DNA of 5,022 nt from a virus (IMGVR_UViG_2740892229_000003); one strand, 5' to 3'; counted from the first letter of the stretch, positions 2 through 4,721 are shown. Translations and numbers: made by a program. Notes: generated by a model not told the origin, from the sequence alone.

Positions 2-3000
2 GTGCAGGCACTGGTGGAAACCACCTCAAAGGGGGACCGGAATCCGTCGGAAGTTCGCCTGCTGGTTCAGATACAGCGTAACGGTGGCTGGGTGACGGAA
101 AAAGACATCACCATTAAGGGCAAAACCACCTCGCAGTATCTGGCCTCGGTGGTGGTGGATAACCTGCCGCCGCGCCCGTTTAATATCCGGATGCGCAGGA
201 TGACGCCGGACAGCACCACAGACCAGCTGCAGAACAAAACGCTCTGGTCGTCATACACCGAAATCATCGATGTGAAACAGGGCTACCCGAACACGGCACT
301 GGTCGGCGTGCAGGTGGATTCGGAGCAGTTCGGCAGCCAGCAGGTGAGCCGTAATTATCATCTGCGCGGGCGCATTCTGCAGGTGCCGTCGAACTATAAC
401 CCGCAGACGCGGCAATACAGCGGTATCTGGGACGGAACGTTTAAACCGGCATACAGCAACAACATGGTCTGGTGTCTGTGGGATATGCTGACCCATCCGC
501 GCTACGGCATGGGGAAACGTCTTGGTGCGGCGGATGTGGATAAATGGGCGCTGTATGTCATCGGCCAGTACTGCGACCAGTCAGTGCCGGACGGCTTTGG
601 CAGCACGGAGCCGCGCATCACCTGTAATGCCTGGCTGACCACACAGCGTAAGGCGTGGGATGNNNNNNNNNNTGCTACCCGAACACGGCACTGGTCGGCG
701 TGCAGGTGGACTCGGAGCAGTTCGGCAGCCAGCAGGTGAGCCGTAATTATCATCTTCGCGGGCGCATTCTGCAGGTGCCGTCGAACTATAACCCGCAGAC
801 GCGGCAATACAGCGGTATCTGGGACGGAACGTTTAAGCCAGCATACAGCAACAACATGGCCTGGTGTCTGTGGGATATGCTGAACCATCCGCGCTACGGC
901 ATGGGGAAACGTCTTGGTGCAGCAGATGTGGATAAATGGGCGCTGTATGTCATCGGCCAGTACTGCGACCAGTCAGTGCCGGACNNNNNNNNNNTAAACG
1001 TCTTGGTGCGGCAGATGTGGATAAATGGGCGCTGTATGTCATCGGCCAGTGTTGCGACCAGTCGGTGCCGGACGGTTTTGGCGGCACGGAGCCGCGCATC
1101 ACCTGTAATGCCTGGCTGACCACACAGCGTAAGGCGTGGGATGNNNNNNNNNNGAAACGTCTTGGTGCGGCGGATGTGGACAAATGGGCGCTGTATGTCA
1201 TCGGCCAGTACTGCGACCAGTCAGTGCCGGACGGCTTTGGCGGCACGGAGCCGCGCATCACCTGTAATGCGTACCTGACCACACAGCGCAAGGCGTGGGA
1301 TGTGCTCAGTGATTTCTGCTCGGCGATGCGCTGTATGCCGGTATGGAACNNNNNNNNNNTTCTCAGTGATTTCTGCTCGGCGATGCGCTGTATGCCGGTA
1401 TGGAACGGGCAGACGCTGACGTTCGTGCAGGACCGACCGTCGGATAAGGTGTGGACCTATAACCGCAGTAATGTGGTGATGCCGGATGATGGCGCGCCGT
1501 TCCGCTACAGCTTCAGCGCCCTGAAGGACCGCCATAATGCCGTTGAGGTGAACTGGATTGACCCGGATAACGGCTGGGAGACGGCGACAGAGCTTGTGGA
1601 GGACACGCAGGCCATTGCCCGTTACGGTCGTAACGTCACGAAGATGGATGCCTTTGGCTGTACCANNNNNNNNNNAATAACGGCTGGGAGACGGCGACAG
1701 AGCTTGTTGAAGATACGCAGGCCATTGCCCGTTACGGTCGTAATGTTACGAAGATGGATGCCTTTGGCTGTACCAGCCGGGGGCAGGCACACCGCGCCGG
1801 GCTGTGGCTGATTAAAACAGAACTGCTGGAAACGCAGACCGTGGACTTCAGCGTGGGTGCCGAAGGGCTTCGCCATGTANNNNNNNNNNGCCGGGGGCAG
1901 GCGCACCGCGCCGGGCTGTGGCTGATTAAAACGGAACTGCTGGAAACGCAGACCGTGGACTTCAGCGTGGGTGCCGAAGGGCTTCGCCATGTACCAGGTG
2001 ATGTCATTGAAATCTGTGATGATGACTATGCGGGGATCAGCATCGGCGGGCGCGTGCTGGCGGTGAACAGCCAGACGCGGACACTGACGCTCGACCGTGA
2101 AATNNNNNNNNNNCGCACCGGCGGGCGCGTGCTGGCGGCAAACAGCCAGACCCGGACGCTGACGCTCGACCGTGAAATCACGCTGCCATCCTCCGGTACN
2201 NNNNNNNNNAGCACCGGTGGTCGCGTGCTGGCGGTAAACAGCCAGACCCGGACGCTGACGCTCGACCGTGAAATCACGCTGCCATCCTCCGGTACNNNNN
2301 NNNNNTCCTCCGGCACCACGCTGATAAGCCTGGTTGACGGGCAGGGTAATCCGGTGAGCGTGGAGGTCCAGTCCGTCACCGACGGCGTGAAGGTGAAAGT
2401 GAGCCGGGTTCCTGACGGCGTTGCCGAGTACAGCGTGTGGGGGCTGAAGCTGCCGACGCTGCGTCAGCGCCTGTTCCGCTGTGTGAGTATCCGTGAGAAC
2501 GATGACGGTACGTATGCCATCACTGCCGTGCAGCATGTACCGGAGAAAGAAGCCATCGTGGATAACGGGGCGCACTTTGACGGTGACCAGAGCGGCACGG
2601 TGAATGGTGTCACGCCGCCAGCAGTTCAGCACCTGACCGCAGAAGTCACCGCAGACAGCGGGGAATACCAGGTGCTGGCGCGCTGGGACACGCCGAAGGT
2701 GGTGAAGGGGGTGAGCTTTATGCTTCGCCTGACCGTGGCAGCGGACGACGGCAGTGAGCGGTTGGTCAGCACGGCCCGGACGACGGAAACCACATATCGC
2801 TTCACGCAGCTGGCGCTGGGAAATTACAGGCTGACAGTCCGGGCGGTAAATGCATGGGGACAGCAGGGCGATCCGGCATCGGTATTGTTCCGGATCGCCG
2901 CACCGGCAGCGCCGTCGCGGATTGAGCTGACGCCGGGCTATTTTCAGATAACCGCCACGCCGNNNNNNNNNNGGCAGCTGGCGCTGGGGAACTACAGGCT

Positions 3001-4721
3001 GACAGTCCGGGCGGTAAATGCGTGGGGGCAGCAGGGAGATCCGGCGTCGGTATCGTTCCGGATTGCCGCACCGGCAGCACCGTCGAGGATTGAGCTGACG
3101 CCGGGCTATTTTCAGATAACCGCCACGCCGCATCTTGCGGTTTATGNNNNNNNNNNCAGCCCGCTATCTTGGTACGGCGCTGTACTGGATAGCCGCCAGT
3201 ATCAATATCAAACCGGGCCATGATTATTACTTTTATATCCGCAGTGTGAACACCGTAGGCAAATCGGCATTTGTGGAGGCCGTCGGTCGGGCGAGCGATG
3301 ATGCATCCGGCTATCTGGATTTTTTCAAAGGCGAGATAGGGAAAACCCATCTGGCTNNNNNNNNNNTTTTTACGTTCGCAGTGTGAACACCGTTGGCAAA
3401 TCGGCATTCGTGGAGGCTGTTGGTCAGCCGAGTGATGATGCATCCGGCTATCTGGATTTTTTCAAAGGCGAGATAGGGAAAACCCATCTGGCTCAGGAGC
3501 TGTGGACGCAGATTGATAACGGTCAGCTTGCGCCTGACCTGGCTGAAATCAGGACGTCCATTACGGATGTCAGCAATGAAATCACGCAGACCGTCAATAA
3601 GAAACTGGAAGACCAGAGTGCGGCAATTCAGCAGATACAGAAGGTTCAGGTTGATACAAATAATAACCTGAACAGCATGTGGGCTGTGAAGCTGCAGCAG
3701 ATGCAGGACGGACGCCTTTATATCGCGGGTATTGGTGCCGGTATTGAGAACACCCCTGACGGCATGCAGAGTCAGGTGCTGCTGGCGGCGGACAGGATTG
3801 CGATGGTTAATCCTGCGAATGGCAACACAAAACCGATGTTTGTTGGTCAGGGCGATCAGATATTCATGAACGACGTGTTCCTGAAACGCCTGNNNNNNNN
3901 NNGCAGGGCGATCAGATATTCATGAACGAAGTGTTCCTGAAACGCCTGACGGCTCCCACCATTACCAGCGGCGGTAATCCTCCGGTATTTTCCCTGACAA
4001 CGGACGGGCGGCTGACGGCGAAAAATGCCGATATCAGCGGTAACGTGAATGCGAACTCCGGGACGCTCAACAATGTCACGATTAATGAAAACTGTCAGAT
4101 TAAGGGGAAACTGTCAGCCNNNNNNNNNNCCCCACCATTACCAGCGGTGGAAATCCACCGGCATTTTCCCTGACACCGGACGGGCGACTGACGGCGAAAA
4201 ATGCGGATATCAGTGGCAGTGTGAATGCGAACGCCGGGACGCTCAACAATGTCACGATAAATGAAAACTGTCGGGTTCTGGGAAAACTGTCTGCGAACCA
4301 GATTGAAGGCGATCTCGTTAAAACAGTGGGCAAAGCTTTCCCCCGGGACTCCCGTGCACCGGAGCGGTGGCCATCAGGGACCATTACCGTCAGGGTTTAT
4401 GACGATCAGCCGTTTGACCGGCAGATTGTTATTCCCGCGGTGGCGTTTCGTGGCGCTAAACATGAGCGGGAGAATAACGATATTTATTCGTCATGCCGCC
4501 TGATAGTGAAGAAAAACGGTGCTGAAATTTATAACCGTACCGCGCTGGATAATACGCTGGTTTATACAGGTGTTATTGATATGCCTGCTGGTCGCGGTCA
4601 CATGACGCTGGAGTTTTCGGTATCAGCGTGGCTGGTAAATGACTGGTATCCCACAGCCAGTATCAGTGATTTGCTGGTTGTGGTGATGAAGAAATCCACA
4701 GCAGGTATCACGATTAGCTGA
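2..4721 (+). CDS. J: Tail tip host-specificity protein J (central tail fibre), 5'-partial; composite of 15 tiles separated by N10 gaps, not translatable as one continuous frame as given
   Basis: Direct translation of the + strand tiles gives a lambda J-like protein recognised from memory, e.g. [170 protein letters not shown]. The frame runs open within every tile and ends at TGA 4719-4721. Non-redundant content is about 3.0 kb. The start lies upstream of the window. Confidence 0.9.
673..984 (+). repeat. Redundant tile: variant copy of 281-592 (J coding sequence), about 9 mismatches in 312 nt
   Basis: Base-by-base comparison of 281-592 with 673-984. Differences are mostly third-codon-position; protein changes include V to A (MVWCLW vs MAWCLW) and T to N (LTHPRYG vs LNHPRYG). 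Preceded by N10 at 663-672. Confidence 0.9.
995..1143 (+). repeat. Redundant tile: second variant copy of J block 514-662 (also overlaps 906-984)
   Basis: 995-1143 aligns to 514-662 with a few substitutions; encodes [24 protein letters not shown] where the first copy has [24 protein letters not shown]. Confidence 0.9.
1154..1302 (+). repeat. Redundant tile: third variant copy of J block 514-662, continuing into unique sequence 1303-1349
   Basis: 1154-1302 aligns to 514-662 and 995-1143; encodes [23 protein letters not shown] (G and Y where the other copies have S or G, and W). The tile then continues with [16 protein letters not shown]. Confidence 0.9.
1360..1406 (+). repeat. Overlap copy of 1303-1349 at the start of the next tile
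   Basis: 47-nt near-identical restart (ttctcagtgatttctgctcgg... vs tgctcagtgatttctgctcgg...) after N10 at 1350-1359. Confidence 0.85.
1676..1879 (+). repeat. Fully redundant bridging tile: first 100 nt copy 1566-1665, last 104 nt are copied by 1890-1993
   Basis: 1676-1775 aligns to 1566-1665 (encodes [33 protein letters not shown] vs DNGWE... in the first copy). 1776-1879 aligns to 1890-1993 ([35 protein letters not shown]). Flanked by N10 on both sides. Confidence 0.9.
2114..2178 (+). repeat. Redundant tile: variant copy of 2039-2103 (J), tile extends to 2199
   Basis: Encodes [21 protein letters not shown] vs [22 protein letters not shown] in the preceding tile. Confidence 0.85.
2210..2295 (+). 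repeat. Redundant tile: near-identical copy of 2114-2199 (4 mismatches in 86 nt)
   Basis: Encodes [29 protein letters not shown], a third version of the same block. N10 on both sides. Confidence 0.9.
2973..3130 (+). repeat. Redundant tile: variant copy of 2805-2962 (J, FN3-like region), about 10 mismatches in 157 nt
   Basis: Alignment of 2806-2962 with 2974-3130. Almost all differences are synonymous; one nonsynonymous change (SVLFRI vs SVSFRI). Confidence 0.9.
3367..3493 (+). repeat. Redundant tile: variant copy of 3230-3356 (J), about 11 mismatches in 127 nt
   Basis: Encodes [42 protein letters not shown] vs [43 protein letters not shown]. Confidence 0.9.
3903..3948 (+). repeat. Overlap copy of 3847-3892 at the start of the next tile
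   Basis: 46-nt restart (gcagggcgatcagatattcatgaacgaagtg... vs tcagggcgatcagatattcatgaacgacgtg...) after N10 at 3893-3902. Confidence 0.85.
4130..4295 (+). repeat. Redundant tile: divergent copy of 3954-4119 (distal J), roughly 20 mismatches in 166 nt (about 87% identity)
   Basis: Encodes [55 protein letters not shown] vs [55 protein letters not shown]; seven amino-acid differences. Confidence 0.9.

Follow-up and report, generated by a model that had tools for sequence, protein, structure and literature searches.

We consider it very probable that the window, by which we mean the whole 5,022-nt stretch of DNA analysed here, is a short-read de Bruijn-graph scaffold of an EHEC-type E. coli close to strain 2013C-4991, in which nodes from the gene J were joined by spacers of 10 N. 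The repeated blocks are an assembly artefact rather than a biological feature, and their value is practical only. The window contains the last 3.1 kb, at the 3′ end, of a tail-tip gene J of the lambda type, followed by a terminator and by a lom gene cut by the insertion sequence ISEc23. At least four J alleles contribute fragments that together represent nucleotides 351-3480 of J, apart from 69 nt (Table 1).

Layout of the window

The first-pass annotation had counted 14 spacers of exactly 10 N, and a listing of every run confirms this number. The spacers separate 15 tiles, all of which can be placed collinearly and without gaps on a single reference J gene. Overlapping but non-identical flanks had been claimed for 13 of the 14 spacers, and 13 upstream restarts are indeed found, the exception being the step from 3146 to 3157, where 69 nt are missing. 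At these 13 junctions, the next tile resumes 11-382 nt upstream of the end of the preceding one, with shared spans of 312, 79, 149, 47, 100, 104, 65, 86, 11, 158, 127, 46 and 166 nt that are 88-100% identical. The range of restarts had originally been given as 11-312 nt, but the value of 312 nt is a shared span, and the first restart really lies 382 nt upstream (T1 is nested in T0). Deliberate masking with N was rejected as an explanation for the spacers, given that the flanks overlap rather than continue.

Table 1. Tiles, spacers and flanking elements of the window (A, B and C are the J copies of strain 2013C-4991; L numbers denote individual J loci).
Feature	Position	Strand	Description
T0	1-662	+	J nt 351-1012 in copy-A coordinates; mosaic allele, exact match to no known copy
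T1	673-984	+	Copy B allele, nested within T0 span; 0 mismatches to L012
T2	995-1143	+	Copy A allele; 0 mismatches in L001-L011; exact in-silico k=61 node
T3	1154-1349	+	Copy C allele; 0 mismatches to L013
T4	1360-1665	+	Copy A allele; 0 mismatches to L003/L004, 2 to L001
T5	1676-1879	+	Copy B allele; 0 mismatches to L012; exact in-silico k=61 node
T6	1890-2103	+	A-like; 2 mismatches to copy A (tile positions 2 and 20)
T7	2114-2199	+	Copy B allele; 0 mismatches to L012; 86-nt bubble branch
T8	2210-2295	+	Fourth allele; alternative bubble branch to T7
T9	2306-2962	+	Copy A allele; 0 mismatches in L001-L011
T10	2973-3146	+	Copy B allele; 0 mismatches to L012; exact in-silico k=61 node
T11	3157-3356	+	Copy A allele; 0 mismatches to copy A
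T12	3367-3892	+	By mismatch positions, B-like at 1-67, common to A/B at 68-423, A-like at 424-526
T13	3903-4119	+	Rare copy B allele; NZ_CP027355.1 2,647,286-2,647,502
T14, first part	4130-4721	+	3′ end of J copy A through stop codon
N runs 1-7	663-672, 985-994, 1144-1153, 1350-1359, 1666-1675, 1880-1889, 2104-2113		
N runs 8-14	2200-2209, 2296-2305, 2963-2972, 3147-3156, 3357-3366, 3893-3902, 4120-4129		
Only 10-N run with a true gap	3147-3156	.	69 nt of J absent; copy-A coordinates 4169-4237 of L003 in no tile
Intrinsic-terminator-like hairpin and T run	4741-4766	+	Between J and lom; 8-bp stem with 6 G-C pairs, then TTTTTATT
lom 5′ part, truncated (Ail/Lom outer-membrane protein gene)	4790-4963	+	RefSeq: Ail/Lom pseudogene without C-terminus
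ISEc23 end (IS66 family), inserted in lom	4964-5022	-	Insertion-free genomes cease matching at 4963

Two tiles, at 1676-1879 and 2210-2295, had been described as entirely redundant. This is true of their positions but not of their sequences, which represent different alleles. The span of T5 falls fully within the coverage of T4 plus T6, and T8 has the same span as T7. The J frame had been said to shift arbitrarily across the gaps. Of the 14 junctions, 7 alter it and 7 preserve it, which is about what would be expected of arbitrary joins.

Behind the 10-N runs, the true distances are +69 nt in one case and -11 to -382 nt in all others, and the number of Ns is therefore a placeholder and not a length. 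The 4,882 called bases in the window correspond to 3,362 nt of real locus, and the earlier advice to collapse the tiles before calling genes or estimating lengths was correct. Mapping to J and lom of lambdoid phages likewise places approximately 4,960 window bases on approximately 3,370 reference bases.

The underlying locus

The reference J gene (copy A) is annotated in RefSeq as gpJ, has a length of 1,159 aa, carries the Pfam domains FNIII-A_GpJ, Phage-tail_3, Ig_J, Phage_Tail_Tip and Ig_GpJ_C, and is located between a tail assembly gene (Lambda_tail_I) and lom. This copy has both the domain set and the position of lambda gpJ, the tail-tip and host-specificity protein, and its sequence is matched at 100% identity by five tiles. 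The window differs from lambda gpJ in that it holds fragments of at least four alleles rather than one J gene.

The J stop codon is at window position 4721. Beyond it, the truncated lom encodes a 66-aa product that matches Pfam Ail_Lom. Genomes that bear the insertion have a minus-strand annotation reading ‘IS66-like element ISEc23 family transposase’, and in 2013C-4991 the ISEc23 transposase, tnpB and tnpA are all annotated, with lom continuing beyond the element. Across the joint at 4963/4964, the window matches the annotated lom pseudogene and ISEc23 of 2013C-4991 and four other complete genomes at 100% identity. Of the IS end, just the first 59 nt fall inside the window.

Eleven tiles match paralogous J genes

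Full-length matches at 100% identity were obtained for 11 of the 15 tiles, the targets being J genes of three different prophages in one genome lineage, which comprises the O80:H2 EHEC strain 2013C-4991 (NZ_CP027355.1) and its relatives. In NZ_CP027355.1, copy A belongs to the prophage at 1.00 Mb, copy B is at 2.65 Mb (L012), 1.64 Mb from copy A, and copy C is at 2.10 Mb (L013); loci L001-L011 are all copy A loci. The mutual identity of the three copies is 92-95%. Tiles with zero mismatches are T2, T4, T9, T11 and T14 for copy A, T1, T5, T7, T10 and T13 for copy B, and T3 for copy C. When compared with the other of the first two copies, T9 has 39 mismatches to copy B and T1 has 7-10 to copy A. 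The whole of T14, including the lom::ISEc23 joint, is identical to NZ_CP027355.1 1,003,411-1,004,303 (893/893 nt, 100%). Tiles from copies A and B are intermixed along the window, and the source J genes are 1.1-1.6 Mb apart in the complete genome. Of 5,426 genomes, no more than 6 contain the T13 allele at 100% identity. Five of these 6 also carry lom::ISEc23, the marker of copy A, which ties copies A and B to one lineage.

The remaining tiles, T0, T6, T8 and T12, have no exact match in 2013C-4991 (T8 is absent from that genome among the 60 of its 64 matches listed). T0 is identical to copy A at positions 1-198, but over its full length it has 15 mismatches to copy A, 16 to copy B and 25 to copy C. 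Its closest match among 5,426 complete genomes reaches 98.8%, and at least five segments of natural alleles are required to reconstruct it. Two patterns derived from T0 are common natural alleles and not specific to the source. We rejected the idea that the T0 joint at 134-198 is an A/B chimera made by the assembler, because the corresponding 80-mer is present without a mismatch in at least 120 prophages of IMG/VR. T8 has 4-7 mismatches to copies A, B and C and includes two bases absent from all three. T12 is an exact B/A hybrid of the 2013C-4991 copies, and T0 is matched in none of the 5,426 complete genomes. A fourth J copy of 2013C-4991 was considered as the source of T8 or T12, and none was found among the matches listed.

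T0, T8 and T12 bear on the reading that the artefact is the same but that its alleles were contributed by several E. coli strains, present together in a mixed culture or a metagenome, instead of by paralogous prophages of one genome. Such a mixture would be compatible with the lack of T12, and of T8 among the matches listed, from 2013C-4991, with the absence of T0 from every complete genome, and with the finding that T8 is 100% identical to J in 64 other, unrelated complete genomes (and in L079) and T12 to natural J alleles in approximately 42 (and in L042). However, the 5 genomes (of 5,426) that have the rare lom::ISEc23 joint also have the rare T13 allele, and a single one of these genomes supplies, in its copies A, B and C, exact counterparts of 11 of the 15 tiles. 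Moreover, carrying four or more paralogs is ordinary for a single isolate: there are up to 14 J places per complete genome and 7 in 2013C-4991. We therefore regard a mixture of strains as improbable and favour one source genome. Because T0, T6, T8 and T12 lack an exact match in 2013C-4991, one or more J copies of the source strain differ from those of 2013C-4991. We would only tentatively, and with some doubt, count T0 and T12 among the candidates for real but as yet unsequenced recombinant J alleles that arose by exchange between co-resident prophages and not as assembler chimeras.

Tile boundaries follow a k=61 rule

The density of variable columns in the J alignment is 0.064, and the following P values are based on this density. 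Tiles start on a variable column in 12 of 14 cases (P 4e-13), and a variable column is present 60 nt before the tile end in 11 of 14 cases (P 2e-11). When k was scanned from 15 to 150, the sole peak for tile ends was at 61, whereas the other 135 values gave 1.2 ends on average and never more than 5. The same spacing is evident in T7 and T8, whose final 60 nt are identical: 26 variable positions plus 60 shared make 86 nt, as a bubble branch at k=61 should measure.

An in-silico graph was built from copies A, B and C at 11 values of k between 31 and 77, including 59-63. T2, T5 and T10 were regenerated exactly at k=61 only, as nodes minus their first k-1 bases, and full nodes that keep the first k-mer equalled no tile at any k tried. 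At k=61, 5 of 10 tile ends coincided with predicted node ends, compared with 0-1 for each of the remaining odd values of k between 21 and 127. Tiles of the same copy abut without overlap or gap, such that T0 and T2 end at reference position 2965 and T4 starts at 2966, and T4 ends at 3271 and T6 starts at 3272. Exact regeneration of the tiles other than T2, T5 and T10 needs paralogs beyond copies A, B and C. T0 and T1 have an exact run of 80 nt in common, longer than k-1, and the k=61 graph predicts internal cuts inside several tiles. Hence not all tiles are elementary nodes, and some are the product of merging or duplication. The ends of three or four tiles are not explained by the variants visible.

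In Velvet, the stored sequence of a node consists of the final bases of its k-mers (PMC3488206). The window resembles Velvet-type scaffolds in that tiles start on variants, end k-1 after variants, abut when they are from the same copy, and are separated by a fixed spacer. It differs in the size of some tiles, which exceed elementary nodes and have more than 60 nt in common; this implies later steps of merging or duplication. Based on these features of the sequence, the assembler was probably Velvet or a derivative. SPAdes writes the whole edge after a gap, which makes tile starts symmetrical with tile ends; a SPAdes-type scaffold was set aside, as no such symmetry is seen here.

A different route to similar tiles would be the ordering of ordinary contigs along a reference J by an external tool, such as a contig orderer or a pan-genome concatenation, with 10 N used as glue. 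Joining sequences with 10 N is a widespread convention, and the tiles are indeed collinear and in a single orientation on the reference J. However, a contig FASTA file keeps the full first k-mer of each contig, and thus starts would be expected 60 nt before the first variant rather than on the variant itself, where most starts are observed. The failure of full nodes to equal any tile at the tested k, and the zero-overlap abutment of same-copy tiles, as occurs in internal node descriptors, also speak against external ordering, which we judge to be very improbable. Joining within the assembler itself is the reading that we retain.

Other assemblies of the locus

Eleven other assemblies of the J-lom::ISEc23 locus, one of which is a complete genome, each contain a single intact J of 3,480 nt with no 10-N run. 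Head-to-tail copies that are reproducible across independent assemblies, as a tandem array would present, were not found in these 11. Searches with the 66-aa lom product and with a 166-aa J fragment led to sibling assemblies but not to the scaffold itself, and a pattern laid across one 10-N junction had no match in IMG/VR. The raw appearance of direct repeats, and nothing more, might suggest real tandem partial duplications within one J gene, with the bases between them left unresolved. This explanation would have to accommodate spacers that are all exactly 10 N, a J frame that changes at half of the joins, an intact gene in every one of the other assemblies, repeat copies that exactly match J genes elsewhere in the chromosome, and boundaries that obey a k-mer rule without biological meaning, and we give it almost no chance of being correct. 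The earlier view that the window is composed of joined contigs or graph bubbles and not of a tandem array is thus borne out by the intact J in the 11 assemblies, the paralog-exact tiles, the k=61 boundaries and the arbitrary gap sizes.

A proposed route of assembly

The source would be an EHEC-type genome with several lambdoid prophages, every one of which has a J gene. At 92-95% identity between the J copies, a k=61 graph would cut J into many short unbranched nodes, each starting at a base that distinguishes copies and ending 60 nt past the last difference. The scaffolder would then chain nodes of at least four J copies into a single linear order by using read-pair links, and read pairs probably set the order of the tiles seen here. 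Nodes would be left unmerged because their overlapping parts are not identical, and each join would be given a fixed minimum spacer of 10 N, which we take to be the minimum scaffold gap of Velvet (no documentation of this rule was found in the literature searched). Each node would be written without its first k-1 bases, as Velvet stores nodes. With these bases omitted, nodes of the same copy would abut, and nodes of different copies would resemble upstream restarts with substitutions.

Consequences for annotation

Because the tiles represent graph nodes of four or more paralogous J genes, a single collapsed consensus would be a chimera, and the tiles need to be sorted by paralog. J is the determinant of host range, and such a consensus would mix at least four alleles of it. 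The rule that tiles start on a variant and end k-1 after a variant provides a cheap test that requires no reads, and it could be applied to other draft assemblies, and to the prophage collections derived from them, to detect artefacts of this kind. Gene calls, protein lengths, repeat annotation and copy-number estimates taken directly from the window would all be wrong. For example, an open reading frame of 489 aa at 1754-3223 remains in frame through six 10-N runs, and its product would show internally repeated segments.

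Identity of the locus

Compared against phage records, approximately 4,960 bases of the window match approximately 3,370 bases of a gene for 'tail tip host specificity protein J' followed by Lom. The final tile (T14, 4130-5022) runs from the end of gpJ through a truncated Ail/Lom gene into the end of ISEc23 and is 100% identical throughout to Escherichia coli 2013C-4991 (NZ_CP027355.1). This strain is an O80:H2 EHEC isolate included in a study of ST301 strains (PMC8537712). Of 5,426 complete E. coli genomes, only five carry the lom::ISEc23 joint, namely 2013C-4991 and four others, and this rarity makes it a good lineage marker for the source strain. 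Eleven other assemblies of the locus carry J as one intact gene of 3,480 nt (1,159 amino acids, with gpJ Pfam domains), and none of these eleven contains an N10 run. In biological terms, the locus is an unremarkable tail region of a lambdoid prophage from an O80:H2-type EHEC lineage, comprising gpJ, a terminator and a lom gene interrupted by ISEc23.

Features of the J-lom region in the window
Feature	Position	Details
J, start within the window	1	corresponds to J nt 351
J stop codon	ends at 4721	
Terminator-like hairpin and T run	4741-4766 (hairpin 4741-4760)	8-bp stem with 6 G-C pairs; interval between J stop and lom start
lom	starts at 4790	truncated at 4963/4964 by an ISEc23 end (IS66 family)

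Spacers, overlaps and reading frame

The first-pass annotation described 14 exact N10 spacers, 13 of them with overlapping but non-identical flanks, and both counts stand. The 140 N bases form 14 runs of exactly 10 nt that delimit 15 tiles (T0-T14). In pairwise local alignment, all junctions but one show the following tile repeating the end or an inner stretch of the preceding tile at 88-100% identity and without indels; these 13 overlaps measure 312, 79, 149, 47, 100, 104, 65, 86, 11, 158, 127, 46 and 166 nt. The sole junction without overlap is 3146 to 3157. As the annotation had anticipated, the off-diagonal matches are also recovered by an independent repeat finder and each stops at an N run; the same tool found no inverted repeats in the window.

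All 15 tiles can be placed on a reference J gene ungapped, collinear and in one orientation. They sum to 4,882 nt versus 3,362 nt of locus covered, a redundancy of 1,520 nt, and stacking is deepest (four tiles) at positions 2817-2895 of copy A, the J gene that adjoins lom::ISEc23. Only the spacer at 3147-3156 lies over missing sequence, where 69 nt of J are absent (4169-4237 of L003, one of the copy-A loci). The remaining spacers represent negative distances of 11-382 nt, such that real distances range from +69 to -382 nt.

From T0 to T14, J is read in frames 2, 1, 3, 3, 3, 2, 2, 2, 2, 2, 2, 3, 2, 1 and 3. The frame, earlier described as shifting arbitrarily across gaps, changes at 7 of the 14 junctions and is kept at the other seven, about as many as arbitrary joins would produce. 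An open reading frame of 489 amino acids (1754-3223) remains open through six N10 runs, and a gene caller that reads through N in this region would yield a spurious J-like protein with internally repeated segments.

Origin of the tiles in J paralogs

The tiles can be compared with copy A and with two further J genes of 2013C-4991, copies B and C, the three being 92-95% identical across most of J. No mismatches to copy A are found in T2, T4, T9, T11 and T14, versus 2-23 in the other ten tiles; for T4 the exact match is in two draft genomes, against 2 mismatches in 2013C-4991. Copy B is matched with zero mismatches by T1, T5, T7, T10 and T13, and T3 is exact in copy C, a third J at 2.097 Mb of the chromosome. 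T6 equals copy A except for two bases close to the tile start. Thus, the origins from T0 to T14 read ?, B, A, C, A, B, A-like, B, ?, A, B, A, ?, B, A. Because four distinct alleles pile up at one position, the source held at least four J copies. This is ordinary for such strains, since J is found at up to 14 places per complete genome and its conserved part at seven in 2013C-4991.

Like T6, three further tiles are less clearly assigned. T8 has two bases absent from A, B and C and is identical to natural J alleles of 64 other genomes. In T12 (3367-3892), the first 67 tile positions are B-like, those from 68 to 423 are shared by A and B, and 424-526 are A-like. The tile is an exact hybrid of the 2013C-4991 copies (B 5', A 3'), joined across the 356-nt stretch common to both, and is also a natural allele in approximately 42 other genomes, a pattern that fits frequent recombination among prophage J genes. 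T0 (1-662) is not matched exactly by any of the 5,426 complete genomes or of 139 retrieved loci; its best match is 98.8%, and rebuilding it takes five or more natural-allele segments. The tile represents either a mosaic J allele that is unique or a chimeric walk through the graph.

The T8 and T12 alleles would allow a mixture of strains rather than paralogs of one genome. However, three copies of one chromosome account for 11 tiles, and the rare A marker travels with a rare B allele: T13 is 100% identical in only six complete genomes, five of which are precisely those with lom::ISEc23, and in 2013C-4991 it lies at 2.647 Mb, in a different prophage from copy A.

Tile boundaries and k-mer length

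In five separate cases, overlapping tiles have a longest exact match of precisely 60 nt, and four of these matches reach a tile end; T7 and T8 are both 86 nt long, comprising 26 variable positions plus 60 shared. These values suggest de Bruijn nodes with k=61. When all tiles, and later also copies B and C, were projected on copy-A coordinates (variable-column density 0.064), 12 of 14 tile starts fell on a variable column (binomial P 4e-13) and for 11 of 14 tile ends a variable column lay precisely 60 nt upstream (P 2e-11). In a scan of k from 15 to 150, the only peak was at 61 (other k: mean 1.2, maximum 5). This asymmetry, with starts on a variant and ends 60 nt past one, is characteristic.

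We also built in-silico de Bruijn graphs from the three real loci (copies A, B and C) at 11 values of k from 31 to 77, including 59-63. Of these, only k=61 regenerated T2, T5 and T10 with identical start, end and sequence, and only for nodes written without their first k-1 bases; no tile equalled a full node at any tested k. For the eleven tiles of known copy origin, 5 of 10 tile ends hit predicted node ends at k=61, versus 0-1 for each of the other odd k values between 21 and 127. Same-copy tiles abut exactly (T2/T4 at 2965/2966; T4/A-like T6 at 3271/3272). Not every tile is an elementary node: an exact run of 80 nt is common to T0 and T1, and internal cuts are predicted inside T1, T4, T11 and T14, which implies that nodes were later merged or duplicated as repeats were resolved.

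Proposed origin and use of the window

Velvet writes a node as the final bases of its k-mers (PMC3488206), so that the stored sequence lacks the shared k-1 prefix. A scaffolder appending such sequences end to end would join nodes from one copy seamlessly, and nodes from different copies at equal coordinates would appear to restart upstream with substitutions. Velvet presumably inserts at least 10 N wherever it estimates a small or negative distance, which would account for uniform spacers despite the range of real distances. No description of this rule was found in the literature, so the assembler's name is one that we infer. Ordinary contigs glued by an external reference-guided tool are an unlikely source, as these would include their first k-mer.

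A real tandem array within J is excluded as far as sequence alone can do so, given the single intact J in other assemblies, blocks exactly matching distant prophages, boundaries that obey the k-mer rule, switches of J frame and spacers of equal length. The first-pass interpretation of concatenated contigs or bubbles rather than an array is upheld by the k=61 boundaries, the paralog matches, the intact J elsewhere and spacers whose length does not reflect the real distance. The tiling belongs to a known class of assembly artefact, in which unmerged repeat and bubble nodes were scaffolded with placeholder gaps; this analysis adds the paralog assignment, the k=61 node fingerprint and a warning against consensus collapsing. 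The advice to collapse the tiles first is correct, with the refinement that one consensus would be a chimeric J. Tiles should instead be sorted by copy, or the region re-assembled with long reads.

Additional observations

In 2013C-4991, two type III effector genes, nleB2 and nleC, lie a short way downstream of the tail fibre genes in the copy-C prophage (11028-12196 of L013, this prophage's locus). The copy-B prophage has a frameshifted minor tail gene L (1118-1815 of its locus, L012) and may consequently be defective. A 2,249-nt contig (L020, SFQY01000093.1) from a GTDB species-representative MAG, whose title reads simply 'bacterium isolate W0P28.011', includes 80 nt (2114-2193) identical to E. 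coli prophage J; this contig may be mis-binned or contaminating.
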